Counted from the stretch's first letter, positions 300 through 20,915 are shown. The stretch is DNA of 64,000 nucleotides from Actinomycetes bacterium (GCA_023336815.1 JAMBLJ010000013.1:7055-71054), one strand, 5' to 3'. Notes: generated by a model not told the origin, from the letters alone. Program-made: numbers and translations.

Positions 300-593
300 T
301 CAGGTGGCGCTCCAGCCCGACGTGTTCGCGTGCTCCTTACGTGTGAAGAGGGCCACGTACATCGCACAGGCGCTCACGGCACACGTCGTGCAGGCTTCAC
401 CGAAACTCTCAGGGTCGAGTACGGCAGTGGTCGTTTCGAAACCGAGGTTGGTATAGAGGGTCTCGAGTTCAGCGATCCGCCCGGGATCGGTGACCGTTCG
501 TCGCTCCCAGCCGTCAGCTGCGAGTGCGGGAGCCTCGAGGATCTGGACACCCGAGGAGCAGTAGATCGCCTCCGACGCGTCGCCGTGGTTCAT
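300..593 (-). CDS. Small Cys-rich hypothetical protein (about 97 aa, EACTTCAVSAC = CxxCxxxxC plus one upstream Cys); putative last gene of the BCR-like operon
   Basis: An internal ATG at 593 overlaps the stop of the upstream ATPase gene as ATGA (591-593 / 590-592), which suggests translational coupling. Four cysteines are present. No family was recognised. Confidence 0.35.
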   Translation of the reverse strand: MNHGDASEAIYCSSGVQILEAPALAADGWERRTVTDPGRIAELETLYTNLGFETTTAVLDPESFGEACTTCAVSACAMYVALFTRKEHANTSGWSAT

Positions 594-1423
594 GCGGGGA
601 CCGTCGCCCTGGCAGGAACGTCGCCATCGCTCTGAAGCTTCTCCAGGCGACGGCGACCGAGGATCGCGCACCCGAGAGACGGTACGAACTGCACCATGTC
701 ACTATCAGGCACGTTGACTTCCGCATCGAGGAGGTCGCTCACGGTCTTGCCCATGGTCTCGAACCGGAGGATCCCTCCGATCAATGTGAACTCGGGATCG
801 GCTCGCACTCGTTTCATGAGCTGCACGGATCGGCCGGTGAGAGACTCGATTGCTCCCTGCATGATGTCGGCAGGTGCAGTCCCCAGCGACAGATGGTTGA
901 TCACCTCGGATTCGGCGAACACCGCACAAACCCCCGAGATCGGGACGGGCTGTTTCGATGTCGTCATCAGGGCGCTGATCTCCTCGATGTCATAGCCCAT
1001 GTACCGTGCGGTCTTTTCAAGGAAGGCGCCTGTACCAGCTGCACATTTGTCGTTGAGCCTGAAGGACAGCACCTTTGCGTGTTCGTCGACCCGGCTGGCC
1101 TTCATAGTTTGGCCGCCAACATCGAGGATGGTCCTCGTTCCAGGGAAGAGGTGATTCGCACCTCTGGCGCTCGCGGTGAGGTCGGTTACCTGAAGATCCT
1201 TGAAGTCGACCTGATGGCGCCCTGGCCCTGTCGCGATGACGTACGCGATGTCATCCTCACGCAACCCTGCACTTTCGAGCACCTCGTCGTAGATCGCGCG
1301 GGCGACTTCCTGGAGCTTGAATCCAGTGGGGATCATCGCCTTGCTGAGGATCTCGCCCTCCTCGTTCTGCAGGAGGGCCTTCGTGTAGGTCGATCCGATA
1401 TCCAATCCAGCCGTGATGATCAT
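590..1423 (-). CDS. BadF/BadG/BcrA/BcrD-family ATPase (CoA-substrate-specific enzyme activase / BcrD-like subunit)
   Basis: N-terminal [10 protein letters not shown] actin-like ATPase fold. Conserved [11 protein letters not shown] and [11 protein letters not shown] Cys motifs typical of HgdC/BcrAD [4Fe-4S] ATPases. The start overlaps the upstream gene stop by 4 nt. Confidence 0.85.
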
Positions 1424-2241
1424 GTCGTCGCCCCCGTGGTCGTGTGGATCGGTGTTCGCCCGGAAAGCACGTTGTCAAGAGCGAACAGGGCTGCACCAAG
1501 TGCTCCCATGTAGTGGCAGTCATCGCTGATGTTCAGCGGCTTCTCGATGCGGTCCTCGAGTGCCTTCACCATGCCAAGGTTCCTCGAGACGCCGCCTGTG
1601 AAGGTGATCTCATCGTTGATGCCAACCCGACGCATCAAGCCGGCGGAACGCGAGGCGATCGATTTGTGAACACCCCACAGGATGTCTTCGATCTTCTTGC
1701 CCTTGCCGATCCATGCGAGGACTTCCGACTCTGCGAACACTGTGCAGGTTGTGCTGATCTTGATCGGCTTCGTGCTGCGCAGTGAGACGGGACCGAGGTC
1801 GTCTATGGGTATGTCGAGCGCGGCTGCCGCGGCGCCAAGAAATCTCCCCGTGCCTGCAGCGCACTTGTCGTTCATGCAGAAGTCGACGATCTCGCCATCT
1901 GCGCTGACCGAGATCGCCTTGGTGTCCTGCCCGCCCATGTCGACAACGGTTCGAGTGTTCGGGAACAAATGGACGGCACCGCGTCCGTGGCAGCTGATCT
2001 CGGTGACCTGGGTGTTCCCGAAGGTGACCCGGTACCTGCCGTAGCCCGTGCCGACTACGTACTCGACCTCTTCCTCGTCGATGCCGTGCTCCCGGAGCGC
2101 CGTCAGGAAGGATTCCTCGGCTGCCTGGATCACGTTTGCACCGGTGTCGATCAGAGACCGACCGACGATGGTTCCCTCTTCGTCGACTATTACCGCTTTG
2201 GTCTGCGTCGATCCAACATCGACGCCTGCTGCGTATGCCAC
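1420..2241 (-). CDS. Second BadF/BadG/BcrA/BcrD-family ATPase (BcrA-like position in the operon)
   Basis: [21 protein letters not shown] and [11 protein letters not shown] motifs. Paralogous to the downstream ATPase. Confidence 0.85.
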
Positions 2242-2249
2242 GTGTCACC

Positions 2250-3554
2250 TCATCCTTGTGCGTCGACGTTCGTGTGTGCTCTGCGGGTTTCGAGGCCTTC
2301 GAAGAAGGCATCGATTCGGTTTTTCATCTGTGCCTCTGAAACGACCCTGCGATCCATCATGTCGGACTCGATGAAGAGGCTCGGGATGCCGAGCTCCTCG
2401 GTCATGTGCTTGCGGCCATCGGCAAGACCCGTCGATACGGTGCGACAGCTCTTGATCGGGTGGTAGATGATCCCATCGATGTCGGCATCCCGTGCCATAT
2501 CAGCGAGTGCGACGTTCTGGTGGAACATCGAATCCATTGCGTCCCGGACCGAGATAAGCACTCCCTCTGCAAGGCTGGCTATGGGATCGGCCAGGTCGTA
2601 TTCGAACCCGCGGTTCGTTCCGCCCGAAGCGAACCAGAGATAGGTCGAGTTGACGAACGTCCCACCCCAGTCGGTGAACAGTTCGTTGAAGCGTCTGAAG
2701 ATCGGATAACACGGCACACCGACGAAGAGCAACCTGTACTTCTCGTCGATCGTCTGACCGATCCCGTTTGCCGCCTTGTACTCCATCTCCTCGACGACCC
2801 GCTCGAAGTACCTGGCGCCCGCTTCGGTTCCCCTGAAGCCGTTGGCAACACCGAGGAAGATGGTGCCGTCGGTAAGTGCGCTGAACAGCGATGGTTTTGC
2901 GTTGTTGAGCTCGAGGATCCTCTTCCATGAGCGGCTCATGGTGTTCGCGTGGGTGAGTACCTCGCGAAACTTGTCGATATCGAACTTCTTCCCTGTGACC
3001 TCTTCACAAACGGTGATGAGCTCCCTGAGCTGGGTCTCGACGTACTTTCGGTCAGCTTCGAAGTCTCTGTCGCCTCGCCAGGTTTGCCCACCAGCCTGGC
3101 GGGTGCCCGGAATGTCGATCGTGAAGACCGGGGTTCCGTACATCCGCTCCCAGATCTCAGCCCATTTGATGTACGTGTTGCATGCGTTGGTGAGGACCGT
3201 GAGGCTCGGTTTCGGGATCTGCCCCATCGGGTGTTCTCCACCACGAAGCTGGGTCCCCACATCCGCCTTCACGTATCCGCAGATATCGGGGGAGTAGCCG
3301 TAGTTCTCGGCTTCGTCGAGGTACTCGTGTGCGACGTGACGGACAGCGGTCTGGAGCGAATTGATCTCGGGGAACACGACGGGAAGATCGAACGTCTTGA
3401 GTATCTCGTTGATGCTGCCCATCACGAATACGTATGCGGACTGTCCGCCAACCTTTGCGGTGTTGTCGAGTTCGGCGAACCAGTTCCTGAACATCGCTGC
3501 GCCCTCACGGTTTCCGCGTCCGACGAGATCGTGTGGGATTTCCAGTGTGGTCAT
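2250..3554 (-). CDS. 2-hydroxyacyl-CoA dehydratase / benzoyl-CoA reductase B-subunit-like protein (HgdA/BcrB/BadE family)
   Basis: Length (about 434 aa), multiple conserved Cys residues, and position between the C-like subunit and the ATPases. Start set at an internal ATG (3554) that is preceded by GGAGG; the upstream extension overlaps the neighbouring gene. Confidence 0.8.
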   Translation of the reverse strand: MTTLEIPHDLVGRGNREGAAMFRNWFAELDNTAKVGGQSAYVFVMGSINEILKTFDLPVVFPEINSLQTAVRHVAHEYLDEAENYGYSPDICGYVKADVGTQLRGGEHPMGQIPKPSLTVLTNACNTYIKWAEIWERMYGTPVFTIDIPGTRQAGGQTWRGDRDFEADRKYVETQLRELITVCEEVTGKKFDIDKFREVLTHANTMSRSWKRILELNNAKPSLFSALTDGTIFLGVANGFRGTEAGARYFERVVEEMEYKAANGIGQTIDEKYRLLFVGVPCYPIFRRFNELFTDWGGTFVNSTYLWFASGGTNRGFEYDLADPIASLAEGVLISVRDAMDSMFHQNVALADMARDADIDGIIYHPIKSCRTVSTGLADGRKHMTEELGIPSLFIESDMMDRRVVSEAQMKNRIDAFFEGLETRRAHTNVDAQG

Positions 3555-3582
3555 GTCCGCCTCCGTGGGTATGTCTGGTCCG

Positions 3583-4758
3583 TCATGCGAACAGCAGGTG
3601 CTCGACGAACGTTGCAACTTGCAGTTCGAGTTGGTCAAACGAGCTCATGTTCTCTTCGAACTCGCTCAGGAAGTAAGAGATCCCCTCAGCGTCGAGAGCG
3701 TGGGTATAGGCCACCTGTTCCTCGAGGCCCGGTTCACACATCTTGGCTGCTGCAAGGATCGCTGCATCCGCCCCTGCAGCGGCGATGCGCTTCTTGAGCA
3801 TCTCTTCCTTGGGCTTACGCGTATCGTGCTGTACGGGGCTGTACGTTGAATGGTCGATGTAGGCGTCGGCGAGGTTTGTGAGCGGGTCACCATCGGTCGG
3901 AACATCATCTGTGATCCAGCGCATGCCAATGTGGAAGTCGTCATCGACGACGTACACCGTGCGACCGAGCATCCGGATGAGGTCAAACGGTGGCTGTTCG
4001 CAGAAACCTCCCTCGAACACAACGCGGATCCGGTCCTCGGGTTTGGTTGTTCGTTCTTTGATGAGGGGGAGAAGCTCTGCAAGGAGTTCGTTGTGCTCTT
4101 CTCTTGGCATCATGCCCGCGAGCGAAACGAGTGCGTACGCGTCTTCGGCAGCAAGGAGCCAGGGTGTTTCTCGCTTGATGTCGTAGATCTCACGCAGGAG
4201 CTTGCGGTTCTCGTTGAACACAACGATCGAGGAGCGAAGATCGTCATCGCTGATCTCGCGGTCGGCGACCTCCTCGGTGACCCTTCGCATCCGATCATAT
4301 TCGTTGCGGAGGTACTCCACGCTTCCCGCAGAGTTCGGGTTCTGTGGCAGATACAGGATCTGGCTGGGATAGTCGACATTGCGACCCCAGATCGCTGCCA
4401 GGTTGCGTGCAGCATCACAGATGGGGTGCGAGATGAACATCTCCATTACGACGACATCACTCAGTGCGAGCTCGAGCGATGTCTTGAGGATCGAGCACAG
4501 GTAGGAGCCGAAGTGGGAATCGGCACGATTCGGTTCTGTCGGTGCTCCCCGAACCTTGAACGGGAGCATGCCCGATGCATGGATGATCTCCTCAGGAAAG
4601 TAGACCTGAAAATGACCGGCAACCTTGCCGCCAGCTTCTCTCCACCGTTGTGCGGTAGCGAAGTCAGGGGACTCCACCATGTCGCGGCATTCCGCAAGGG
4701 CGTCGTCAAGTGACAGGTTCCTCCACTCGGGGAACGTCCTTGTGGCCGTGAGTGTCAT
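3583..4758 (-). CDS. 2-hydroxyacyl-CoA dehydratase / benzoyl-CoA reductase C-subunit-like protein (HgdB/BcrC/BadD family)
   Basis: 391 aa, HGD-D family-like. Placed first in the four-gene set, as in bcrCBAD. The start overlaps the tetR stop (ATGA). Confidence 0.75.
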   Translation of the reverse strand: MTLTATRTFPEWRNLSLDDALAECRDMVESPDFATAQRWREAGGKVAGHFQVYFPEEIIHASGMLPFKVRGAPTEPNRADSHFGSYLCSILKTSLELALSDVVVMEMFISHPICDAARNLAAIWGRNVDYPSQILYLPQNPNSAGSVEYLRNEYDRMRRVTEEVADREISDDDLRSSIVVFNENRKLLREIYDIKRETPWLLAAEDAYALVSLAGMMPREEHNELLAELLPLIKERTTKPEDRIRVVFEGGFCEQPPFDLIRMLGRTVYVVDDDFHIGMRWITDDVPTDGDPLTNLADAYIDHSTYSPVQHDTRKPKEEMLKKRIAAAGADAAILAAAKMCEPGLEEQVAYTHALDAEGISYFLSEFEENMSSFDQLELQVATFVEHLLFA

Positions 4759-5375
4759 GTCGTTCCTCCTGCTGGTTGTGTAGCTGCTCCGTCGAAGAAG
4801 AGATCGACTACGTGGCCAAGACGTGCTTCCGTGGTTCCGTAGATGCGGTCGGCATAGTCGCCGATGACGACCTCCACGAGTGCAACGAATGACCAGGAGA
4901 GGATCCGGGAGTCTCCTGGGGCGAGTTCTCCGTCGCGGATGCCATCTTCGATGATCTCCTGAACGCGTTCGGGCAACGCTCGCTGGTAGGCCCGAACAAG
5001 TTGTTCGCGTTCCTCGCCGCTGAAGGTATTGACATCTCGTCGTACGAGCCTGGTGAGTTCACGCTCCTCGCGGGGGAGTTCGAGGAAGTCTCTCGTGAGC
5101 CCTGCAAGCCGTTCTCTCGCCGTACCCGGTGAGGCGACAGCCTGTGCGAAGAGCACTCGCTTGTCTTCGAGGTCGTCGAGCATCATCGTCACGTACAGCT
5201 GCTCTTTGCTCGTGAAGTGGTGGTACAACCCACCCTTTGTGACATCCGCAGCACGGGCGATCATGTCGGTGGTCACATCGGCGTAGGTCCTGGCTACGAA
5301 GAGATGTCGTGCTGCAGCGATGATCCTCGCCGCAGTTGCCTCAGATTTCGTTGGTCTCGTCACCGTTGCTGGCAT
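4755..5375 (-). CDS. TetR/AcrR family transcriptional regulator, first gene of the BCR-like operon
   Basis: N-terminal HTH: ARHLFVARTYADVTTDMIARAADVTKGGLYHHFTSKEQL. Confidence 0.85.
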   Translation of the reverse strand: MPATVTRPTKSEATAARIIAAARHLFVARTYADVTTDMIARAADVTKGGLYHHFTSKEQLYVTMMLDDLEDKRVLFAQAVASPGTARERLAGLTRDFLELPREERELTRLVRRDVNTFSGEEREQLVRAYQRALPERVQEIIEDGIRDGELAPGDSRILSWSFVALVEVVIGDYADRIYGTTEARLGHVVDLFFDGAATQPAGGTT

Positions 5376-5392
5376 AGCTCCCTCACATACCG

Positions 5393-5407
5393 ACCGACCG
5401 GTCGGTA
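5393..5407. promoter_or_regulatory. 14-bp perfect palindrome ACCGACCGGTCGGT about 18 nt upstream of the tetR start; candidate TetR operator
   Basis: Read directly from the sequence; the position is typical for an autoregulated TetR. Confidence 0.3.
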
Positions 5408-5557
5408 TGAGACTACATCAATGACTCCCTGTCTGTCAACGAACAGTTCGGTATCAGATCTCGGACAACAGATCCCGGACAACAGAGAGGACCGAAAAGT
5501 GGTCGAAGAGGAGTCTCTAGCTCGCGCGGTCCTATCTGATCTCTGTCAGCGCAGCGA

Positions 5558-5585
5558 TCTGCTGTCTGTATTCTGTTTCTGCTAC
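5558..5585. repeat. TCTG heptamer tandem array (TCTGCTG TCTGTAT TCTGTTT CTGCTAC) abutting the sigma-factor stop; contains the reverse complement of ACAGACAGCAGAT
   Basis: 7-bp periodicity read in the sequence. Confidence 0.4.
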
Positions 5586-6511
5586 AGCAGACCCTTCAGG
5601 TCGTACAGCGTCGAGGGATGACGAAGTTTGCCGAGAGCCCTGGTCTCGATCTGGCGAACACGTTCGCGGGTGATACCGAGGCGATCCCCCACGTCAGAGA
5701 GTGTCCTCGGAGGTCGTGTGTCGAGTCCATAACGAAGCACGAGCACTGTTTGTTCTCGTTCATCGAGCGTAGCCAACGCTCTCGTGAGCTCCTCCGTACG
5801 CGCTACGTCAGCAATGCGTGCGAATGGGTCTTCTGAGGCTGCATCCCTGACGAAGTCCCCCAGATGGGCATCTCCTTCTTCGCCGATGGGCCGGTCGAGG
5901 GACACGGTGTCGTTTGGAGCGCTCAGGGCAAGCAGGATCTTGTCCTCGTCCAGCCCGCTCATCTCGGATATCTCATGGATGGTCGGGATTCGGTGGAGTT
6001 TCTCCTGCAGTACGAGTTCGGTCTCGTGAACGGTGCGCACGACATCGACCATGTGGACCGGAAGCCGGATGGTCCGTCCGTGGTTGCCAAGACCGCGGGT
6101 TATGGCCTGGCGGATCCACCATGTGGCATATGTCGAGAACTTGAAGCCTTTACGCCAGTCGAACTTCTCGACCGCCCGGATCAGCCCAAGGTTTCCCTCC
6201 TGGATGAGATCGAGCAGATCGAGCCCCCGACCCGTGTATCGCTTCGCGATCGAGATCACCAGTCGAAGGTTGGAACGAATGAATTGCTGTTTGGCGTGTT
6301 CGGCGAGCCGGACGAGTCTCACGAGCTCAGCCCGCCTGGCGGGTAACAACGATGCTGCGGATGTCAGTTCGAGTTCCGCTTGTTGTCCGTGCTCGATCGC
6401 TCGAGACAGACGGACCTCGTCCTCTGCCTCCAGGAGATCATGACTGGAAACAGCATCGAGGTACATGCCGATGGCATCGGCTACCGATGATTCCCTTGCA
6501 GCGTTCGCCAT
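5582..6511 (-). CDS. RNA polymerase sigma-70 family sigma factor (group 2 / SigB-like, regions 1.2-4)
   Basis: [31 protein letters not shown] and [12 protein letters not shown] motifs. C-terminal region 4 HTH. Confidence 0.85.
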
Positions 6512-6556
6512 ACAACCCCCCGATCGTGGCATCACGCAACCCTGTGTTCAGCGCCA

Positions 6557-8131
6557 TTGGAAGTTATCACCACGAAGCCATTTCGGCAAGAGAGTTGTAC
6601 CCTTCATGACCCCATAGACAGGACCTCACCTTTGGTTCGGAGTTGGCCTTTCCTCATCGCGTTCGGTGCCGTGATTCTCGGTGCATGTTCGAGCGCGGTC
6701 GGTGTGACCCCGGGAGATGCGGTCGTCCCACCGGCGCTCGGTGCGCCGACCATCGAGATTGTCACACTTGCCGCCGATGATCTGGGTGTGGTTGCGGCAT
6801 CGGTGAGTGCGGATGGTCGGGTGCTCACGGGAGACGAAGCAGGTGATGTGTGGGTGTCCTGGGCGAACGCTCCTATCGACGTAACCGTTGAGGCCGATGG
6901 CTTTCATCCGTGGGAGTTCACGATCGAAACGTATCCCGACGCAGGGAAAATCGAATTCCGGCTTGAGCCCGTCGTACTCACTGGACGGGTCACAACCGAC
7001 TCGGGTCGGCCTCTTCCCGGAGCCAAGATCGTGCTTGGCAGCGCGCGGGACACGACCGATAACGAAGGTCGCTACACGCTCGAACGTGCGGTGCCTGGCA
7101 CGATCGCTCTGTCGAGACCGGCGTGGGACGCCATCGAGTATCCCTGGAACGGTGACATCGACGCTCTTGACATGGCCATGGCGCCAACCATCACAAGGGC
7201 GCTACGTGTCGCTCCAGATGACATCCTTGATAGCGACCGATGGGACACGATCCTGTCACTTGCCGACGTGACGGACATCAACGGACTTGTGATCGACCTC
7301 AAGACGGAAGACGGCACCGTCGTGTACGCAACCGAGGTTCCGACGGCGAACGCGATCGGCGCGGTCAGCAGCTACTTCGATGCCCGCGATGTGATCGCCG
7401 ACGCCCGAGCGCGCGATCTGTACCTGATCGGTCGCGTAGGCGTCTTCCAGGACAGCTTCTTCGCAGAGGCAGAACCCGATCACGCGGTCGTGAATGAGGA
7501 TGACGGGACGTTGTGGCGATCGCGCAACGGTTTCGCGTGGCTGGATCCTTCGGATCCGGCCTCCTTTGAGTACTCGATCGCTCTAGCCGAGGAGGCGTGT
7601 CGCCTTGGATTCAACGAGATCCAGTTTGACTACGTTTCATATCCGCTCGGAGGAGACGTATCGACGGCGACCTTCGACGGTGCGTACAACCAGGAGGTTC
7701 GTGTCGCTTCCATCGCCGCGTTCCTGACCCGCGCGTACGCTGTGCTCCATCCAACAGGATGTGCCGTGTCGACAACGATCCTCGGCATCGTTCTCGAGTC
7801 GAGCGCGGACGAAGGTGTCGGCCAGCGCCCCAGCACGATGTCGCGTATCGTCGACGTGTTGGCTCCGACCCTGTACACCACGAACTACGGTGCAGGGTGG
7901 AAGGGCTTCGATGATCCGGATGACTTCGCAATAGAGGTCGTGTCGTCGGCTCTTTTGGGTGGCCAGGGAAAGCTCGACGGGCATGCGTATATCAGGCCGT
8001 GGCTTCAGACGTGGGCGATCGATGCAGCAACCCAACGAGGGGTGCAGGCGTGGGTCAGCGACGACGGCATGGGTTGGCAGTTGTGGAGCAACGACGCGAG
8101 CTACTCGGCCGATGCTTTGCCGAGGAAGTAG
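6557..8131 (+). CDS. Putative glycoside hydrolase-like lipoprotein (DUF4015 / GHL-type TIM-barrel domain) with an N-terminal beta-sandwich region
   Basis: Signal peptide with lipobox (ILGACSS). The motifs GLVIDLKTEDG ... EIQFDYVSYP resemble the DUF4015 family. Confidence 0.5.
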   Translation: MEVITTKPFRQESCTLHDPIDRTSPLVRSWPFLIAFGAVILGACSSAVGVTPGDAVVPPALGAPTIEIVTLAADDLGVVAASVSADGRVLTGDEAGDVWVSWANAPIDVTVEADGFHPWEFTIETYPDAGKIEFRLEPVVLTGRVTTDSGRPLPGAKIVLGSARDTTDNEGRYTLERAVPGTIALSRPAWDAIEYPWNGDIDALDMAMAPTITRALRVAPDDILDSDRWDTILSLADVTDINGLVIDLKTEDGTVVYATEVPTANAIGAVSSYFDARDVIADARARDLYLIGRVGVFQDSFFAEAEPDHAVVNEDDGTLWRSRNGFAWLDPSDPASFEYSIALAEEACRLGFNEIQFDYVSYPLGGDVSTATFDGAYNQEVRVASIAAFLTRAYAVLHPTGCAVSTTILGIVLESSADEGVGQRPSTMSRIVDVLAPTLYTTNYGAGWKGFDDPDDFAIEVVSSALLGGQGKLDGHAYIRPWLQTWAIDAATQRGVQAWVSDDGMGWQLWSNDASYSADALPRK

Positions 8132-8140
8132 CGGAGCGAC

Positions 8141-8872
8141 GTGACACCCGAACGAGACACGACATCACAAGCGCCACTGGATGCGGCAACCGAACTGGAA
8201 GTGCTTGAGAAGTCCCTCCTCAGCTGTCGCGCGTGTCCCAGGCTTGTTGCCTGGAGGGAAGAGGTCGCCGTCACGAAGCGTGCTTCGTTCATCGACGATG
8301 ACTACTGGGGGAGACCTGTTCCAGGTTTCGGCGATCCATGGGCATCGATCGCTGTCATCGGTCTGGCTCCGGCAGCCCACGGTGCCAATCGAACGGGGCG
8401 TATGTTCACCGGTGATCGTTCGGGCGACTGGTTGTACAGGGCGATGTTCCGCGCGGGTCTTGCAAATCAGGCGGCATCCGTCTCAGCAGATGATGGTCTT
8501 GAACTCAATGGTGCGTGGGTGACGGCGCCGGTGCGTTGTGCCCCTCCAGAGAACAAACCGACCCCGGAGGAACGTTCGAACTGCGCAGCATGGTTCGATG
8601 CCGAGCTGGCTCTGTTGCCGAACGTGACTGTCTTCGTGGTGCTCGGACAGATCGGGTATCACGCCTTGTGGTCCCATCTGCACAGAACAGGCGAGGACCT
8701 ACCGAAGCCACGTCCAAAATTTGGTCATGGCCGAGAGGTCACTCTCGGTGATCGTTCCATCGTGATGAGCTATCACGTCTCCCAGCAGAACACGTTCACG
8801 GGTCGGTTGACGGAGGAGATGCTCGATGCCGTGTTCACGAGTGCGCTCAAGGCGGTCAGCGAGGTCCGGTGA
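8141..8872 (+). CDS. Uracil-DNA glycosylase, family 5 (UdgB-like)
   Basis: The CRACPRL Fe-S motif region and GLAPAAHGANRTGRMFTGD are characteristic of family 4/5 UDGs. Confidence 0.7.
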   Translation: MTPERDTTSQAPLDAATELEVLEKSLLSCRACPRLVAWREEVAVTKRASFIDDDYWGRPVPGFGDPWASIAVIGLAPAAHGANRTGRMFTGDRSGDWLYRAMFRAGLANQAASVSADDGLELNGAWVTAPVRCAPPENKPTPEERSNCAAWFDAELALLPNVTVFVVLGQIGYHALWSHLHRTGEDLPKPRPKFGHGREVTLGDRSIVMSYHVSQQNTFTGRLTEEMLDAVFTSALKAVSEVR

Positions 8873-9464
8873 AGAGGATCCATGGGACCAGCCTTCGGTC
8901 CAGTGCGTCCGTCAGGAGGGGGTAGGGGTTCTCTTTCGTGTCCTCGTGTTTGATCTCGAAATGCACGTTCGGCGTCGTATTTTCTGCGTTCCCCGAGTCG
9001 CCAACGTACCCGATCACATCACCAGCTGACACTTCCTGGCCCTCTACGAGTGTGGGAAAGAACGCTGTCCATGGTCCCCCTTCGCCGTCGTCGGTACCCA
9101 CGGTGTCGTTGTTCAGATGGAGATACGAAGAGATCCAACCATCCTTGTGTTCGACGACCAGGTAGTAGCCGGAGAGCCGGTGGAGGCCCATTTTCACAAT
9201 GGTGCCATCGGCCACTGCAACCACAGGCGTTCCTCGCTCGCTCACGATATCGGTGCCGCTGTGGCGTCTGCCGCCAGAGCGAGATGCTCCCCAGGTATCG
9301 GAGAACCTCACATTCGATGAATCGACGGGAAACGTTGCGAGGGCGAACCTCGCTTCCTCGTTCTCGGCGAGTGCTGGCTGGGGAAAGACGAGCGACTGAG
9401 CGCCCGCGGTAGCGATGAGTGCGGCTGCGATGAGCGCGCTGAAGCGCATGGTGTTGGTGCGCAT
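8856..9464 (-). CDS. Secreted M23 family metallopeptidase (LytM-like)
   Basis: Signal peptide MRTNTMRFSALIAAALIATAGA. HxGxD and HLH/HFE M23 motifs. Start at 9464 is preceded by GAGGAGG. Confidence 0.8.
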   Translation of the reverse strand: MRTNTMRFSALIAAALIATAGAQSLVFPQPALAENEEARFALATFPVDSSNVRFSDTWGASRSGGRRHSGTDIVSERGTPVVAVADGTIVKMGLHRLSGYYLVVEHKDGWISSYLHLNNDTVGTDDGEGGPWTAFFPTLVEGQEVSAGDVIGYVGDSGNAENTTPNVHFEIKHEDTKENPYPLLTDALDRRLVPWILFTGPR

Positions 9465-9641
9465 GGATCTTGACCTCCTCGGGCAACGGGTCCTACCGGG
9501 CTGCCTCGATCGTGATGTCGATGGGAACGGTAGGTGAGGTACTCGTTTACCTTCACTGAGATACACACACGGCCATGGTGGAAACCGGTCGATTGCTTGC
9601 AGGGCAGGGGTATCCTGACCCCGAACTCACGAAGGACTGTT

Positions 9642-10835
9642 GTGCCCCCCACACTCACTGGTTCCAACGACGCCGCCTGGATGGCGAAGAAGCGGACCGC
9701 TGCTCTGGAACTGTTGCCGACCCTTGCGATGCCATCGGAGCGCGAGGAGAACTGGCGCTATCTTGACCTCTCGTTCGATCCAGATCTTGACTCTGCGCCA
9801 TCCACACCGGGTGTTGCCTCGAGCGATGCGATCGTTGCTGGTTGGCATGGCACCGTCGTCACAATCGTTGACGGGTTCATCGTCACCGACGGCGTGCAAT
9901 CGATCGGTGAACGTAACGAGGAAACGGTCTCCGTCGATGGAGACGACCTCTTCTCCACCGCCTTCGTCGCGTACGCTCCTGGCACAGCGTATCTCGGCAA
10001 GGAGCTCCTGACGCAGCCCGTCTTTGTTGACATACAATCCACCTCGACGGCAACCACATTTCCAGGGGTACACGTAGATGTTGCGCCAGGAAGTGATGCA
10101 ACAGTTGTCGTGCGAATGTCCTCCAACTCGGATCAGCCAGCCGTGACGGTGCCAAGGGTGACAGCGAACGTCGGTGACAACGCACGACTCACGCTGAGCA
10201 TCATCCAGGACTGGAACTATGCAACACGTGCGATCGGTCGATGTACGATCCGTCTCGGTCGCGACTCTGGTCTTGCTTTTAGCGAGATCGGACTCGGCGG
10301 CAAGGTTGGGCGGCTTCATCTTGATGTTGACTACATCGGTGATGGTTCGCACGCCAAGATATACGGTGCGTATTTTGGTGAAGGAAACCAGACGCTGGAC
10401 TACCGGTACTTCATGAACCATATCGGCACGAATACTCGCGCCGATATGTTCCTCAAGGGAGCCGTTGCTGACACGGCGCTCTCAGTATTCACCGGCATGA
10501 TCCGCATCGAAGAAACTGGCCAACGGACGGAGTCCTTCGAGACCAACCGGAACTTGATCCTGTCTGAGGGCGCAGCTGCCCAATCGGTTCCCAATCTCGA
10601 GATTCTCAACAACGACGTCAAGTGCGGTCACGGCTCAAGCATCGGACCTCTTGACGAGGATCAGCGCTACTACTTGATGTCCCGAGGACTGACGCCCGAG
10701 CACGCCGATCGCCTGCAGGTTCACGGATTTTTCGAAGAGGTCGTTGAACAGATCCCAGATGAACACGTCGCGGCATGGGCTCGTGAGCGGATCAACAACA
10801 AGTACATCGTTGCTCAGCAAGAGGGCAGAGTATGA
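9642..10835 (+). CDS. sufD: Fe-S cluster assembly protein SufD (SufB/SufD family, SufD by length of about 398 aa)
   Basis: C-terminal VKCGHGSSIGPLDEDQRYYLMSRG motif. GTG start at 9642 is preceded by GAAGGA. Followed by Rieske and sufC genes, as in actinomycete suf operons. Confidence 0.75.
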   Translation: MPPTLTGSNDAAWMAKKRTAALELLPTLAMPSEREENWRYLDLSFDPDLDSAPSTPGVASSDAIVAGWHGTVVTIVDGFIVTDGVQSIGERNEETVSVDGDDLFSTAFVAYAPGTAYLGKELLTQPVFVDIQSTSTATTFPGVHVDVAPGSDATVVVRMSSNSDQPAVTVPRVTANVGDNARLTLSIIQDWNYATRAIGRCTIRLGRDSGLAFSEIGLGGKVGRLHLDVDYIGDGSHAKIYGAYFGEGNQTLDYRYFMNHIGTNTRADMFLKGAVADTALSVFTGMIRIEETGQRTESFETNRNLILSEGAAAQSVPNLEILNNDVKCGHGSSIGPLDEDQRYYLMSRGLTPEHADRLQVHGFFEEVVEQIPDEHVAAWARERINNKYIVAQQEGRV

Positions 10836-11158
10836 GCGATATCAACGTTGGTCCGGTTGAGGGATTCTCTTCCGACGCTGGCACGGTCGTCGACGTCGGA
10901 GGGACAGCGGTTGCGGTGTTCTGCATCGATAACGCCGTGTACGCGATTGCAGATCGATGTTCTCACGCCGAAGCGTCGCTCAGCGAAGGCGATGTCTTCG
11001 ATGGAGAGATCGAATGTCCAAGGCACGGTGCATCGTTCGATATCCAGAGCGGTGCGGCGCTGACATTGCCAGCCACCCAACCCGTACGGACGTATACAAC
11101 TCATGTCCGGAACGGCGATCTGTACATCACCAGCAACTCCAGCGAGGATGATCGATGA
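10832..11158 (+). CDS. Rieske (2Fe-2S) domain protein (ferredoxin subunit type)
   Basis: CSH ... CPRHG Rieske motifs. ATGA overlaps with both the sufD stop and the sufC start. Confidence 0.85.
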   Translation: MSDINVGPVEGFSSDAGTVVDVGGTAVAVFCIDNAVYAIADRCSHAEASLSEGDVFDGEIECPRHGASFDIQSGAALTLPATQPVRTYTTHVRNGDLYITSNSSEDDR

Positions 11159-11886
11159 GCTACGCACTTGAAGTACGCAACTTGCGAGCTCGGATCGGTG
11201 ATCTCGAGATCCTCACCGGTGTGGATCTTACGGTTCCATTCGGTGAGGTCCACGCTGTCATGGGTCCCAACGGGTCCGGCAAGTCAACCTTGAGCCACGT
11301 ACTGATGGGCAAGAGCGACTACAACGTCGAGGGCGACGCCTTCATCGACGGTGTCGACCTGTCAGGGATGACCGTGGATCAAAGGGCGCGAGCAGGTCTC
11401 TTCGAGGCGTTCCAGTACCCGATCGAGGTTCCTGGCGTCTCCCTCGATCTCCTTACGACGGCCATGGCAGAGAGCAACCCGGAGGATCCAGGATTCGGTG
11501 GTCGGATCGCGGCGACGTCGGAGCGTCTCTCGATGGAGCCGTTCAGATCACGGGCCCTCAACGTCGGTCTTTCTGGCGGCGAGAAGAAGCGATCTGAGAT
11601 GTATCTTCTTGGTGTGGCCAACCCAAAGGTCGCGATCCTTGACGAGATCGACTCTGGTCTCGACATCGATGCGGTACGAGAGGTCGCTGCGATGGTCGAA
11701 GCGTTGCGAAGCGAGGACCTCGGTGTTGTCATCATCACCCACTACAGCAGGATCCTGAGGTACATGTCGGTCGACAAGGTTCATGTCATGGTCGCGGGAA
11801 AGATCGTCAGATCCGGTGGTCCGGAGATCGCCGAAGAACTCGAAGGTTCGGGCTACACGGAATATCAGGTCGCAGCCGCTGGTTGA
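11155..11886 (+). CDS. sufC: Fe-S cluster assembly ATPase SufC (divergent paralog)
   Basis: GPNGSGKST Walker A and LSGGEKKR signature. SufC-length protein. Confidence 0.8.
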   Translation: MSYALEVRNLRARIGDLEILTGVDLTVPFGEVHAVMGPNGSGKSTLSHVLMGKSDYNVEGDAFIDGVDLSGMTVDQRARAGLFEAFQYPIEVPGVSLDLLTTAMAESNPEDPGFGGRIAATSERLSMEPFRSRALNVGLSGGEKKRSEMYLLGVANPKVAILDEIDSGLDIDAVREVAAMVEALRSEDLGVVIITHYSRILRYMSVDKVHVMVAGKIVRSGGPEIAEELEGSGYTEYQVAAAG

Positions 11887-11889
11887 ACG

Positions 11890-12579
11890 GTGGGCATGGA
11901 AACTGACGCGGTGCCACCCCCCGAACTCGTATACGTTGCGGATCCTATGTGCTCATGGTGCTGGGGGTTCGCACCGGTAATCGAGAAGCTCGACGATTCG
12001 TTCGACATCGAGGTGCGGACGATCATCGGCGGTCTCAGACCTGGTGAGAGGGCCGAACCGATCGAGCGAATTCGTTCACTTCTTGAACATCATTGGCAGC
12101 AGGTGGCATCGGCCTCCGGTCAACCGTTCGATCTGCGTGGCATCGAACGTTCGGATTGGATGTATGACACGCTGGTTCCCGACACAGCGGTTGTCACGAT
12201 GCGGTCCGTGTCACCGAATGACACCCTCCGATTCCTCGGAACCGTGCAGCGCGCGTTCTACGCAGAGGGAGTCGATGTGACCGATCCTGTCGTCTACCGC
12301 GATCTCGTGGCTGACTATCCGGTTGATCCTGATGCGTTCGTTGCGGCCATAGCTTCGCCGGAGATGGTCGCAGCAACGGAGCAGGACTTTGTGGAAGCTC
12401 AGTGGCTCGGAGTGACCGGTTTCCCAACACTTCTGTTGCGGGATGGAGCTACAACGGTGCCCTTGAGTCTCGGATACGCCCCGTTCGAACGTGTTGCCGA
12501 GAGGCTCAACGGCCTCATCACAAAGAACTACCCAGAGTTCGCTGCCGGACTTGTATGTGACCTCGATGGGTCCTGCTGA
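11890..12579 (+). CDS. DsbA-family thioredoxin-fold oxidoreductase (FrnE/HCCA-isomerase-like, CSWC active site)
   Basis: DPMCSWCWGF motif. Starts 4 nt after the sufC stop. Confidence 0.6.
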   Translation: MGMETDAVPPPELVYVADPMCSWCWGFAPVIEKLDDSFDIEVRTIIGGLRPGERAEPIERIRSLLEHHWQQVASASGQPFDLRGIERSDWMYDTLVPDTAVVTMRSVSPNDTLRFLGTVQRAFYAEGVDVTDPVVYRDLVADYPVDPDAFVAAIASPEMVAATEQDFVEAQWLGVTGFPTLLLRDGATTVPLSLGYAPFERVAERLNGLITKNYPEFAAGLVCDLDGSC

Positions 12580-17826: not shown

Positions 17827-18400
17827 CTACGCCCGCCGCGATCATTGAGGCGCACGCTCGAGCCCCATCGCCTGGATCGATGTCGACGGCAGCGATGCCA
17901 TCTGCAAGGAGCACCGCGCTGAAGCCGTATCGGGTTGCGTCTATTGCTGTCTCCTTGACGCAGTAGTCGGTTGCAAGACCCAGGACATAGACATCCGTGA
18001 CACCACGTTCTGATAGGGTTCGACCGAGCCCGGTAGGCGCTTCCGCAGCCGAAACAGCATCCCTCACGGTGAACGCTGAGTAGCCATCTTCTCCCGAAGT
18101 CCCCTTCCGAACTACGGTCGTAGGTGCAATGAGATCTTCGTGGAAGTCTGCGCCCCACGTATCGGCTACGCAATGTACAGGCCAGATTCCCCCGTCCTTT
18201 GCGAAGTGGGGTGTCGAGGCTGGATGCCAGTCCTGGGAAGCGACGACAAGAGCACCAGCCGAGGTGGCGTGATCGATCTGCGAGTTGATGTACGGCAGGA
18301 TCCTTGGTGCGGCCGTCACGAAGAGGGACCCATCCGGGTGAGCGAAATCGTTTTGCACATCAACGACGATGAGAGCTGTTGTGGGCGAATAGCCCGTCAC
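17816..18400 (-). CDS. pncA: Nicotinamidase / pyrazinamidase (isochorismatase family)
   Basis: ALIVVDVQNDF, WPVHCV and GLATDYCV are close to Mtb PncA as recalled. The start overlaps the sufU stop (ATGA). Confidence 0.85.
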   Translation of the reverse strand: MTGYSPTTALIVVDVQNDFAHPDGSLFVTAAPRILPYINSQIDHATSAGALVVASQDWHPASTPHFAKDGGIWPVHCVADTWGADFHEDLIAPTTVVRKGTSGEDGYSAFTVRDAVSAAEAPTGLGRTLSERGVTDVYVLGLATDYCVKETAIDATRYGFSAVLLADGIAAVDIDPGDGARACASMIAAGVAIH

Positions 18401-18855
18401 GAAGCCTTCTCGGCCTGCTCAAGTGCATCAGAGAGTGTGGCCCATGCAAGATCAGCACACTTGATGCGAACCGGGAATTTCCGAACTCCCTGCAGCGCCT
18501 CGAGATCTCCGAGGACGGAACCTGGGCGGTCAGGATCGACGGGATTCTCGCCCTCTTCGATCGTCATCATGGTCTTGAACTTCGTCGTGAGGTCGCTGAC
18601 CTCCGCAAGCGATTTCCCGATGATTGCATCCATCATCATCGATCCACTCGCCTGTGATATCGAGCAGCCTTGGCCCTGCATCGCCGCATCGGTGATCTTT
18701 CCGTCTTCGATCGCGACGTCGATCGAGAACTCGTCGCCACAGGATGGATTGTTGCCCTCAGCGTGGACATGGGCTCCGTTGAGGGTGCCCCGCTTTCTGG
18801 GGTTGCGGTAGTGGTCGAGAATGACCTCTCTGTACAGCTCATCTAGTTGTGACAT
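18397..18855 (-). CDS. sufU: SufU (NifU-like) Fe-S scaffold / sulfur acceptor
   Basis: Conserved Cys motifs (NPSCGD, GQGCSIS, KCADLAW). 152 aa. Confidence 0.85.
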   Translation of the reverse strand: MSQLDELYREVILDHYRNPRKRGTLNGAHVHAEGNNPSCGDEFSIDVAIEDGKITDAAMQGQGCSISQASGSMMMDAIIGKSLAEVSDLTTKFKTMMTIEEGENPVDPDRPGSVLGDLEALQGVRKFPVRIKCADLAWATLSDALEQAEKAS

Positions 18856-18915
18856 GGCTCGTTGTTTCCAAGTATCGGTGAATGTCAGAGTGTATCTGGC
18901 ATGGATCGGTTGAGA

Positions 18916-20142
18916 TTACGACAGCCCGAAGATCTGTCTTGCCTTGAGGAGACCTTCAGCGAGGGCGTCGACCTCCTCAGGGACATTGTAGAGATAGAAC
19001 GATGCTCGGGCCGTTGCAGGAACACCGAGGTACTTCATCAGGGGTCTCGCGCAATGGTGACCCGCACGAACCGCGATCCCGTCCTGGTCGAGGATGGTGG
19101 CAATGTCATGGGCATGAATGTCTGCCAACTCGAAACTCACGGCCCCTCCTCGTTTGGTTGCGTCCTTGGGCCCATAGACGCGCAGATCGGGGATCTCGGA
19201 CAGTTTCTCGAGCGCATACGTGGTGAGGTCGCGCTCATGCGCAGCGATCACATCCATCCCGATGGCATCGAGATAGTCGACCGCGGCACCGAATCCGACA
19301 GCCTCTGCGATCGGTGGCGTTCCCGCTTCGAACTTGTGGGGGACGGGTGCCCAGGTTGACGTATGACGTTCAACGATGTTGATCATCTCACCACCACCCT
19401 CGGTTGGTTCCATCTCCTCAAGCCGCTCTGGTTTGCCCCACATTGCGCCGATTCCGGTTGGGCCGAGCATCTTGTGTGAGGAGAAGGCAAGGAAGTCGAC
19501 ATCGATCTGGTTCACGTCGACGGGCTGATGAGGTACGAGCTGTGCAGCGTCGAGCACGACGAGAGCGTCTACAGACCGGGCTGCCTGAGAGAGGACATCT
19601 ATGGGTCCGAGAGCGCCCGTTACGTTCGACATTCCAGAGAACGAGACGATCTTGATCCGGTCGTCGATCACGGACTCCAGTTCGCCGATATCCACTGTGT
19701 AGTCGTCGGTAAGTTCAAGGTAGACGAGCTCCGCTCCGGTATGCCTTGCGATTATCTGCCATGGGACGATGTTCGCGTGGTGCTCTGCGATCGTGACGAG
19801 GATCCGATCACCCTGTTTCAGGCGGTCGAGTCCCCAGCCGTACGCTATGTGGTTGATGGCGGTGGTTGTACCTCGTGTGAAGACGGTCTGTGCAGGGTCT
19901 GCTCCGATGAAGCGGGCGACCTTCGACCGAGCGCCTTCGTAGAGCTCCGTAGCTTCAGCCGCGAGGGTGTGGGCACCCCTGTGGACATTGGCATTCGAAG
20001 TTCGGTAGTACGCCTCCATCGCATCCAGAACAGCCACTGGCTTCTGCGTGGTGGCTGCTGAGTCGAGGTAGACGAGCGGGTGACCGTTGATGGAACGCGA
20101 GAGGATCGGGAAGTCCGAGCGCAGGCTCCGCAGGTCGGTCAC
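18916..20142 (-). CDS. sufS: Cysteine desulfurase SufS (class II aminotransferase)
   Basis: PLP lysine motif SSHKMLGPTGIG and C-terminal RAGHHCA active-site Cys. 408 aa. Confidence 0.9.
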   Translation of the reverse strand: MTDLRSLRSDFPILSRSINGHPLVYLDSAATTQKPVAVLDAMEAYYRTSNANVHRGAHTLAAEATELYEGARSKVARFIGADPAQTVFTRGTTTAINHIAYGWGLDRLKQGDRILVTIAEHHANIVPWQIIARHTGAELVYLELTDDYTVDIGELESVIDDRIKIVSFSGMSNVTGALGPIDVLSQAARSVDALVVLDAAQLVPHQPVDVNQIDVDFLAFSSHKMLGPTGIGAMWGKPERLEEMEPTEGGGEMINIVERHTSTWAPVPHKFEAGTPPIAEAVGFGAAVDYLDAIGMDVIAAHERDLTTYALEKLSEIPDLRVYGPKDATKRGGAVSFELADIHAHDIATILDQDGIAVRAGHHCARPLMKYLGVPATARASFYLYNVPEEVDALAEGLLKARQIFGLS

Positions 20143-20915
20143 CCAGAAACCGCTTCTGCCCGGTAGGCATCGTATCCGGTCTCTTCGATCCGGTCGGCAA
20201 GTGATGCCTCGCCGGATTCGACAATGGTTCCATCGAGGAACACATGGACGACATCTGGAGTGATGTAGTCCAACATCCGCTGATAGTGGGTGATGATCAG
20301 AAACCCACGCTCGTCGTTTCTGAGGCGTTCCACACCTTCAGCCACGATCTTGAGCGCATCGATATCGAGTCCTGAGTCGGTCTCGTCGAGGACGGCGAAG
20401 TCGGGTTCCAGCACCGCCATCTGGAGTACCTCATTGCGTTTTCGCTCACCACCCGAGAACCCCTCATTGAGATAACGGTCTGCGAACGACGAGTCCATGG
20501 CGAGTTCCTTCATCGCCTCCATCACCTTGAGTCGGAGTTCAAGCACCGTGTAGTCGGTACCCGTCCGGTTGGACAACGCGGCCCGAAGGAAGTTCACCAT
20601 CGATACACCCGGAATCTCCTCGGGGTACTGGAATCCGAGGAACATTCCTGCCTGACCGCGGGCCTCGGTCGCCATGTTGGTGATGTCCTCGCCCTTGTAC
20701 GTGATCGTTCCGCGCGTGACTTCGTAGCTCGGATGGCCGAGGAGAACGTTCGCAAGCGTTGACTTGCCGGATCCATTCGGACCCATGATCGCATGGGTTT
20801 CGCCGTGCGCGATTGTCAGGCTGACACCTTTGAGAATCTGAATGTCCTCGACGGATGCGTGGAGATCGTCGATCACGAGGAGGGGCTGGTCGGCAGGAGT
20901 TTGCAACATGGCCAT
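20139..20915 (-). CDS. sufC: Fe-S cluster assembly ATPase SufC (canonical copy)
   Basis: GPNGSGKST, FSGGERKR and ITHYQRML motifs. Confidence 0.9.
   Translation of the reverse strand: MAMLQTPADQPLLVIDDLHASVEDIQILKGVSLTIAHGETHAIMGPNGSGKSTLANVLLGHPSYEVTRGTITYKGEDITNMATEARGQAGMFLGFQYPEEIPGVSMVNFLRAALSNRTGTDYTVLELRLKVMEAMKELAMDSSFADRYLNEGFSGGERKRNEVLQMAVLEPDFAVLDETDSGLDIDALKIVAEGVERLRNDERGFLIITHYQRMLDYITPDVVHVFLDGTIVESGEASLADRIEETGYDAYRAEAVSG

Follow-up and report, generated by a model that had tools for sequence, protein, structure and literature searches.

A TetR-linked operon in an uncultured marine Acidimicrobiia genome predicted to encode an aryl-CoA reductase of the 3-methylbenzoyl-CoA reductase type

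The minus strand of a 64,000-nucleotide stretch of DNA from an Actinomycetes bacterium (GCA_023336815.1, JAMBLJ010000013.1:7055-71054; hereafter the window) carries, at positions 300-5375, six intact and closely packed open reading frames (ORFs): tetR, two genes for HGD-D proteins, two for BcrAD/BadFG ATPases, and a small cysteine-containing ORF. We think it probable that this locus is a TetR-repressed operon encoding a class I (ATP-dependent) aryl-coenzyme A (CoA) reductase of the 3-methylbenzoyl-CoA reductase (MBR) type. The enzyme is predicted to be oxygen sensitive and to de-aromatize benzoyl-CoA-type compounds. Class I benzoyl-CoA reductases are the ATP-driven enzymes of the "biological Birch reduction"; to our knowledge, nearly all studies of them concern a few denitrifying Proteobacteria. 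An initial annotation of the window had described the locus as a possibly undescribed member of the BCR/HAD radical enzyme family without pathway context. Judged by its homologies, the enzyme is an expected member of a known and structurally solved type, not an undescribed radical enzyme.

Subunit homology and cluster ligands

Every subunit of the enzyme had as its best match in a sequence search of the PDB the corresponding chain of MBR (entries 9g87, 9gai, 9gal and 9gba). These chains were MbdO for beta (9g87_A; 531 bits, E 1.3e-158, 53.4% identity), MbdN for gamma (9g87_B; 507 bits, E 2.9e-151, 56.3% identity), MbdQ for alpha (9gai_D, 269 aa; 409 bits, E 7.5e-122, 69.5% identity) and MbdP for delta (9gai_C; 311 bits, E 6e-92, 56.3% identity). 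The earlier assignment to the BCR/HAD radical enzyme family holds: PF06050 was matched twice, so that the large subunits are HGD-D proteins, and PF01869 was matched twice. The suggestion of an undescribed member does not hold, as the four subunits are one-to-one homologues, at 53-70% identity, of a characterized enzyme of solved structure, with the same conserved cysteines as that enzyme in every subunit. The accompanying doubt that an alpha subunit of about 275 aa is too short also falls away, because MbdQ has 269 aa (versus 273 aa in the window) and a short alpha is thus normal for the MBR type.

The other types of class I enzyme fit the window proteins less well. Class I benzoyl-CoA reductases comprise three types, BCR, MBR and BZD, and those of the BCR and MBR types are permanent heterotetramers (PMC11971306; Fuchs et al. 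2025). With NCBIfam, benzoyl-CoA reductase (BCR) subunit models ranked first for beta, gamma and ATPase 2; for ATPase 1, the activase domain model (TIGR00241) ranked first and BcrA second. Models for HadBC, BzdNOPQ and double-cubane proteins scored lower. We rejected the BCR (Thauera) type based on scores well under the cut-offs of its equivalog models (TIGR02263, TIGR02260, TIGR02259 and TIGR02261) and on the alignment of alpha, which covers solely positions 225-432 of the BcrA profile, its C-terminal half; the N-terminal part of BcrA (~200 aa) is missing from the window alpha. The BZD type was rejected because TIGR03190, TIGR03191 and TIGR03192 gave 91, 100 and 184 bits against cut-offs of 454, 449 and 380, and because Cys appears to occupy only about three of the six cysteine positions of BzdN. 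BzdNOPQ (PDB 8s02) is of the same superfamily, but the catalytic subunits of the window reached only 88-91 bits against BzdNO, far under the 507-531 bits against MbdON. A double-cubane protein was likewise rejected (112 and 68 bits, cut-off of 350).

The design of the operon is that of the established systems. The gene order C-B-A-D with two different ATPases, pointed out in the initial annotation, was confirmed as a series of adjacent, coupled genes in which each ATPase matches its own MBR subunit. This order and the ATP-coupled heterotetramer design are shared with BcrCBAD/BadDEFG of Thauera and Rhodopseudomonas and with MbrCBAD of Magnetospirillum (PMC11971306, PMC4268860), as is the downstream Dch/Had/Oah logic found in the relatives of the window described below. 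Unlike these systems, the window cassette has no attached fdx ferredoxin gene.

It is very improbable that the operon instead encodes a 2-hydroxyacyl-CoA dehydratase and its activator, which would use ATP only catalytically. In favor of this reading, PF06050 is the family of the dehydratases and TIGR00241 that of the activases, the name given by NCBI to relatives is "2-hydroxyacyl-CoA dehydratase family protein," and the window proteins share with HadBC+HadI and HgdAB+HgdC both Pfam families (PF06050 and PF01869), a three-Cys cluster site and the Cys127/Cys166 motif of the activator. However, the scores were much weaker than those for MBR: the window proteins reached 146 bits with the HadB model (cut-off of 750) and 173 bits with the HadC model (cut-off of 700), leading us to reject this candidate too, and HadBC in the PDB gave 121-135 bits. 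In addition, the dehydratases have one gene for a homodimeric activator, whereas the window has two different ATPase genes, each with its own MBR counterpart, and relatives of the cassette adjoin dch, oah and had, a benzoyl-CoA pathway neighbourhood.

Residues predicted to bind the clusters are conserved. Both ATPases contain NDKCAAGTG (Cys127) and C(T/A)VFAESE (Cys166), motifs that the initial annotation had already recognized, and these cysteines align with the equivalent ones of MbdQ, MbdP, HadI and HgdC. From the HgdC structure, we take them to be the ligands of a bridging [4Fe-4S] cluster. In beta, Cys92, Cys125 and Cys370 were kept in MbdO and in all 85 of 85 homologues. The catalytic features of BzdO are Cys95, Cys128, Cys380, an Fe-bound water, Glu65 and His131 (PMC11971306). 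Cys92 and Cys125 of beta align with the BzdO cluster ligands Cys95 and Cys128; by motif, we pair Cys370 with Cys380, and we pair Glu63, which lies in a conserved FPEINSLQ motif and was invariant in a 10-sequence sample, with Glu65. In gamma, Cys24, 88, 114, 253 and 341 were kept in 95-100% of 76 homologues and are also present in MbdN. About three of the six ligand positions of the BzdN [8Fe-9S] double-cubane cluster appeared to be Cys (read by eye from the printed alignment), and a single cluster like that of HadC therefore seems more likely in gamma than an [8Fe-9S] cluster. We predict that gamma is the electron-transfer Fe-S subunit and beta the substrate-binding catalytic subunit, with a cluster chemistry of MBR that we infer from BzdNO and from sequence.

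We propose that reduced ferredoxin would load a single [4Fe-4S] cluster that the two ATPases of an alpha/delta heterodimer share, with Cys127 and Cys166 of both as its ligands. ATP hydrolysis would push the electron to a very low potential, and the electron would move by way of the Fe-S centre of gamma to a [4Fe-4S] cluster in beta (Cys92, Cys125 and Cys370). There, benzoyl-CoA or a substituted analogue would be converted to cyclohexa-1,5-diene-1-carbonyl-CoA, a product that could be processed by the adjacent Dch, Had and Oah in related genomes. Without inducer, probably the aryl-CoA substrate, TetR would bind a palindrome over its own promoter and silence the whole operon, and the co-translated small CxxC protein would be a conserved accessory of MBR-type operons. 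We observed the gene content, the homology of the subunits, the conservation of ligands and operator, and the gene neighbourhood of relatives; the substrate, the electron donor, the repression and the inducer in this scheme are those that we infer.

The six genes are tightly coupled (Table 1). We do not attribute the operon to chance, because the Pfam E-values range from 1e-48 to 1e-66. All six ORFs are co-directional, as noted initially, with 4-nt overlaps at three junctions (tetR/gamma, ATPase 1/ATPase 2 and ATPase 2/small ORF) and gaps of 28 nt between gamma and beta and 8 nt between beta and ATPase 1. The ATG of the beta gene is preceded by GGAGG at a distance of 6 nt. The small ORF had been listed as 300-671; the ATG at 593 is its likely start. 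The GC content of the cassette resembles that of the remaining window. A SigB-like sigma-70 factor gene (5582-6535) is the upstream neighbour of tetR. The downstream side is barely visible because only 300 bp of the window, ending within a convergent ABC-ATPase gene, lie beyond the small ORF.

Table 1. Genes of the operon and the palindrome upstream of tetR
Feature	Position	Strand	Description
Palindrome CATACCGACCG-GT-CGGTCGGTATG, putative TetR operator	5386-5409		Perfect palindrome read from sequence, 10 nt upstream of tetR ATG
tetR	4755-5375	-	206 aa, first gene of operon; PF00440 E 4.6e-16, and TetR_C_24
gamma subunit, MbdN/BcrC-like HGD-D protein	3583-4758	-	391 aa; PF06050 E 2.5e-61
beta subunit, MbdO/BcrB-like HGD-D protein	2250-3554	-	434 aa from ATG; PF06050 E 4.6e-66
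alpha subunit, ATPase 1, MbdQ-like	1420-2241	-	273 aa; PF01869 E 2e-66; TIGR00241 269 bits
delta subunit, ATPase 2, MbdP-like	590-1423	-	277 aa; PF01869 E 1e-48
Small CxxC protein	300-593	-	97 aa; ATGA overlap with delta stop

Pathway genes and possible substrates

Cassettes closely related to that of the window adjoin genes of the benzoyl-CoA pathway. We clustered all ORFs of the related loci that were fetched and judged gene context where the flank was sufficient. The order gamma-beta-alpha-delta was conserved across the related loci. Each of the eight Acidimicrobiia loci whose sequence extends at least 7 kb downstream (L004, L005, L007, L013, L015, L016, L020 and L023) had a convergent dch-oah-had block, composed of a short crotonase, a long crotonase and a zinc alcohol dehydrogenase, directly after the cassette. 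In L004, the beta subunit is 92% identical to that of the window. Oah of this locus scored 567 bits (cut-off of 464) and Had 468 bits (cut-off of 339), both above the NCBIfam equivalog level; the Dch-like protein had TIGR03189 as its best match, at 211 bits, under the cut-off of 292. An Oah-like gene was found in 23 of the 41 loci with enough flank, and in the Chloroflexota loci the whole gene set runs in one direction, along with a gene for a PaaX-like regulator.

Genes resembling those for 4-hydroxybenzoyl-CoA reductase (Hcr-like) follow the block in five of the eight Acidimicrobiia loci. The alpha, beta and gamma subunits in L004 had 4-hydroxybenzoyl-CoA reductase as their best match (860, 245 and 193 bits, all below the cut-offs). 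We also observed the three molybdenum-hydroxylase subunits beside dch-oah-had (L004, 16348-21291; also L013, L015, L023 and L038), followed by a PrpF/4-oxalomesaconate-tautomerase-like gene.

The statement in the initial annotation that the operon has no pathway context was correct for the window and not for its Acidimicrobiia relatives with enough flank: dch-oah-had adjoins the cassette in each of the eight, and five of them also have Hcr-like genes. Because the cassettes of these relatives adjoin such genes, we attribute the orphan state of the operon to its genomic position and not to the enzyme family.

Several findings weigh against the assignment to an MBR-type enzyme acting on benzoyl-CoA-type compounds. 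The equivalog cut-offs for BCR were all missed, at 239 bits against 421 for subunit C, 200 against 486 for B, 217 against 578 for A and 145 against 313 for D. The catalytic subunits are only ~55% identical to those of the characterized enzyme, and substrate specificity is therefore not transferable. The position of His131 in BzdO is occupied by Tyr128 in the window beta, by Phe in MbdO and by Val in HadB. None of the genes dch, had and oah, nor a gene for a CoA ligase, a crotonase or a 2x[4Fe-4S] ferredoxin, was found in the 64-kb window, in agreement with the earlier remark that CoA ligase, dienoyl-CoA hydratase and ferredoxin genes are lacking nearby. Where related loci have enough flank, the cassette stands alone in about half of them, as it does in the window, and no ferredoxin gene was found within 10 kb of the cassette in any of 80 related loci. 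The other 58 kb of the window is housekeeping in character and includes SUF genes and genes for fumarase, lipoamide enzymes, transketolase, a penicillin-binding protein, arginyl-tRNA synthetase, Rho, release factor 1 and serine hydroxymethyltransferase.

An alternative is that the enzyme is a BCR-like ATP-dependent reductase acting on a CoA thioester other than a benzoyl-CoA, which could be another aromatic, heteroaromatic or alicyclic acyl-CoA, with stand-alone cassettes feeding a pathway that does not involve dch, had and oah. We consider this unlikely. It would account for the isolated position of the cassette in the window and in roughly half of the related loci (including L028, L029, L041, L048, L051, L053, L056 and L058), for the thiolase, HAD-ECH fusion and acyl-CoA dehydrogenase genes found in place of dch, had and oah in Planctomycetota loci, and for the moderate identity to MBR together with a Tyr near the active site (Tyr128, invariant in a 10-sequence sample of the window clade) where MbdO has Phe. 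However, the beta subunits of stand-alone and of pathway-linked cassettes are both 71-92% identical to that of the window, making a change of reaction class unlikely, and the nearest relatives (up to 92%) are pathway-linked. Furthermore, pathway genes for the window operon may be located elsewhere in the genome. We therefore favor an MBR-type reductase of benzoyl-CoA-type compounds.

Among the Planctomycetota loci, L043 and L044 lie on one contig (JASMMN010000024.1, Phycisphaerales) in opposite orientations and have identical gene maps. Either the cassette region has been duplicated in inverted orientation or the contig is misassembled. Upstream, both loci also carry one more ATPase copy and an additional, partial beta-like ORF.

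The regulator, its putative operator and the fifth gene

The palindrome in front of tetR is conserved in related loci. Its core, ACCGAC-N(2-10)-GTCGGT, was present in 32 of the 85 sequences scanned, and in most of the 32 it was the sole match and was within the tetR upstream region. Loci with the palindrome belong to several phyla and include members of Acidimicrobiia, Gemmatimonadota and Planctomycetota. The TetR gene itself is also conserved: in 41 related loci, a homologue immediately precedes the gamma gene. This conservation, which the initial annotation had proposed to check, is consistent with the predicted control of the operon by TetR. Because the palindrome core is conserved upstream of tetR across phyla, there is good comparative evidence that the palindrome is the cognate operator of this TetR and would mediate autoregulated repression of the whole operon. 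A possible promoter, TTGACA-N18-TAGTCT (5439-5410), lies directly before the palindrome. This is a weak reading by eye, and a scan with the sigma-70 consensus called no promoter, this one included.

We compared the regulator to MbdR. This TetR-family regulator (PDB 4uds) is known from the mbd cluster of Azoarcus, and the ATAC and GTAT ends of the window palindrome are like those of MbdR boxes. By analogy to work on MbdR, reportedly that of Juarez and colleagues in 2015, we infer that an aryl-CoA could act as inducer. Orthology to MbdR was rejected: 4uds scored 33.9 bits and ranked 19 among TetR proteins in the PDB, and the best match was 2hyt, with 53 bits. The conserved palindromic operator upstream of tetR is new but modest.

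The small CxxC protein encoded by the fifth enzyme-linked gene is conserved well beyond the window. A homologue is encoded directly after the delta gene in 48 related loci, and the family comprises 1527 clusters at 90% identity. No Pfam domain is present in any of them, and wherever a source gives a name, it is "hypothetical protein." Twelve residues are invariant (P22, G28, W29, R32, E42, Y47, G51, E53, C68, C71, T84 and R85). Searches of Pfam, NCBIfam and PDB sequences gave no match for the protein. An AlphaFold2 model, of moderate confidence, has a beta-alpha-beta-alpha-beta core, and structural neighbours of the model were not convincing.

The fifth gene appears to be general to MBR-type operons. 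Locus L085 belongs to the true-MBR clade and encodes an MbdO-like protein that is 78% identical to the solved MbdO. Its gene order is O-N-Q-P, that is, beta-gamma-alpha-delta, in contrast to gamma-beta-alpha-delta in the window. Immediately after the MbdP-like gene of L085 is a 92-aa ORF homologous to the small protein (hhalign probability 99%, E 9.5e-18), and it is because of this homologue that we extend the gene to MBR-type operons in general. Its conservation extends beyond the true-MBR clade to Acidimicrobiia, Planctomycetota and Chloroflexota. Only the chains MbdO, MbdN, MbdP and MbdQ were obtained for the solved MBR entries, and the small protein is not among them.

Tentatively, the small protein might be an undescribed fifth component of MBR systems, either an electron-entry adaptor that takes the place of the missing dedicated ferredoxin or a factor for Fe-S assembly, repair or oxygen protection. 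A putative role in electron entry or Fe-S maintenance is a reasonable idea because ferredoxin genes are absent within 10 kb of related cassettes. The conserved CxxC protein of ~95 aa is new but modest; with the TetR/operator pair, the fifth gene is a concrete addition to the known system.

Host, distribution and possible exchange of the cassette

The host is an uncultured marine member of the Acidimicrobiia represented by a metagenome-assembled genome (MAG). The exact gamma protein was found in MAG GCA_011682265.1, in an ENA metagenome assembly and in Logan assembly SRR15671255, whose DNA is 99.98% identical to that of the window. Exact-protein matches were on contigs of 1.7-7.5 kb only, and an exact 38-mer scan of JGI metagenome contigs for the left extension of the window gave no match. 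The 120 best homologues of beta were 75-92% identical and, where named, came mostly from Acidimicrobiia/Acidimicrobiales MAGs. Some have the JGI annotation "benzoyl-CoA reductase subunit B," and one is labeled [quoted passage not shown]; a bcr annotation has thus already been given to the cassette by metagenome pipelines.

Relatives of the enzyme are widespread. In a scan of one genome per GTDB species, relatives of beta were found in at least 566 species genomes from many phyla. The best 80 of these were 71-92% identical to the window protein, and all were MAGs, from Acidimicrobiia, Planctomycetota, Gemmatimonadota, Acidobacteriota, Chloroflexota, Zixibacteria, KSB1, Myxococcota and other groups. 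Record names of relatives indicate sediment, vent, oxygen-minimum-zone and groundwater sources. Members of the Acidimicrobiia order UBA5794, the lineage from which locus L020 comes, have been inferred to be microaerophilic or anaerobic, and bcrBC has already been reported in sediment members (PMC12008989). Neither the host nor these findings support the earlier description of the source as an apparently aerobic actinobacterium.

The window enzyme is placed in an uncultured and very widespread sister clade within the MBR type. A search seeded with MbdO returned a small true-MBR group (67-100% identity), then groups at 57-63% (with a few named Alphaproteobacteria), and then the window clade, whose homologues are 52-57% identical to MbdO. 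In a neighbor-joining tree rooted with HadB, a long stem is followed by a split between the true-MBR group and a large group that holds the window protein. Based on the search and the tree, the window protein lies outside the small clade with the characterized MBR, which we take to come from Betaproteobacteria, and far from HadB. Whether the proteins form a separate clade was a check proposed initially; the tree points to a sister clade inside the MBR type. The breadth of the MBR-type clade across uncultured phyla is modestly new. Because this large and highly conserved clade spans at least 566 species genomes of many uncultured phyla, anaerobic or microaerobic reduction of aromatic rings may be far more widespread than the model organisms suggest, including in marine Actinomycetota.

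Other homologues were also observed. Two loci (L086 and L087, 8001-9344) have a lone MbdO-like gene, 73% identical to MbdO, with no gamma, alpha or delta partner. Its neighbours are genes for a TRAP transporter and 2-oxoacid:ferredoxin oxidoreductase, a toxin-antitoxin pair, and TetR_C fragments, and the locus looks like a decayed mbd cluster. A tblastn search of plasmids returned distant homologues only (21-30% identity). Among these, matches H4-H16 (21-25% identity) are genes of the HGD-D family located on large plasmids. Most come from Sphingopyxis, Novosphingobium and Croceicoccus, and Rhodococcus ruber, Rhizobium and Azoarcus gave one match each. Those of these bacteria that are typically aerobic would be the kind of case of a BCR/HAD enzyme in an aerobe that the initial annotation considered.

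The cassette appears to move between genomes. DNA similarity of the window to every other locus ends at the cassette borders (333-5406). Compared to L001/L003, from another Acidimicrobiia lineage, the cassette is 99.7% identical over 2330-5421 and the flank is only 82% identical over 5544-9940, with the break in identity in the tetR promoter region. This difference between cassette and flank suggests that the cassette recently recombined or swept between lineages. Its apparent mobility is new but modest. L001/L003 share synteny with the window, including the sigma factor, DUF4015, UDG and M23 peptidase genes.

The exact end of similarity at the cassette borders, the contrast with the flanks and the lack of pathway genes nearby might also be expected of a recently acquired, silent or decaying passenger that has no function in this genome at present. 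The six ORFs are nevertheless intact, with coupled junctions, a ribosome-binding site and an operator, the catalytic residues are conserved, and the GC content is like that of the remaining window. A passenger is thus very improbable, and we favor a functional aryl-CoA reductase operon.

Other parts of the window contain features of possible interest. In a single 552-aa ORF (28657-30315, plus strand), a LipB-like octanoyltransferase domain (LplA-B_cat) is joined to a LipA-like domain of the radical-SAM type; the ORF adjoins the genes for the E3 and E2 lipoamide enzymes and may be a LipB-LipA fusion. Tandem paralogues of ~500 aa, each with an M23 peptidase domain, are encoded on the minus strand (48438-49937 and 49959-51497). 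The SUF Fe-S assembly genes are in two groups ~6 kb apart (9534-12579 and 18397-20915). One group has SufBD-family and ABC-ATPase genes beside a DsbA-like gene, and the other has genes for a class-V aminotransferase (SufS-like) and a NifU_N protein (SufU-like) and a second ABC-ATPase gene.

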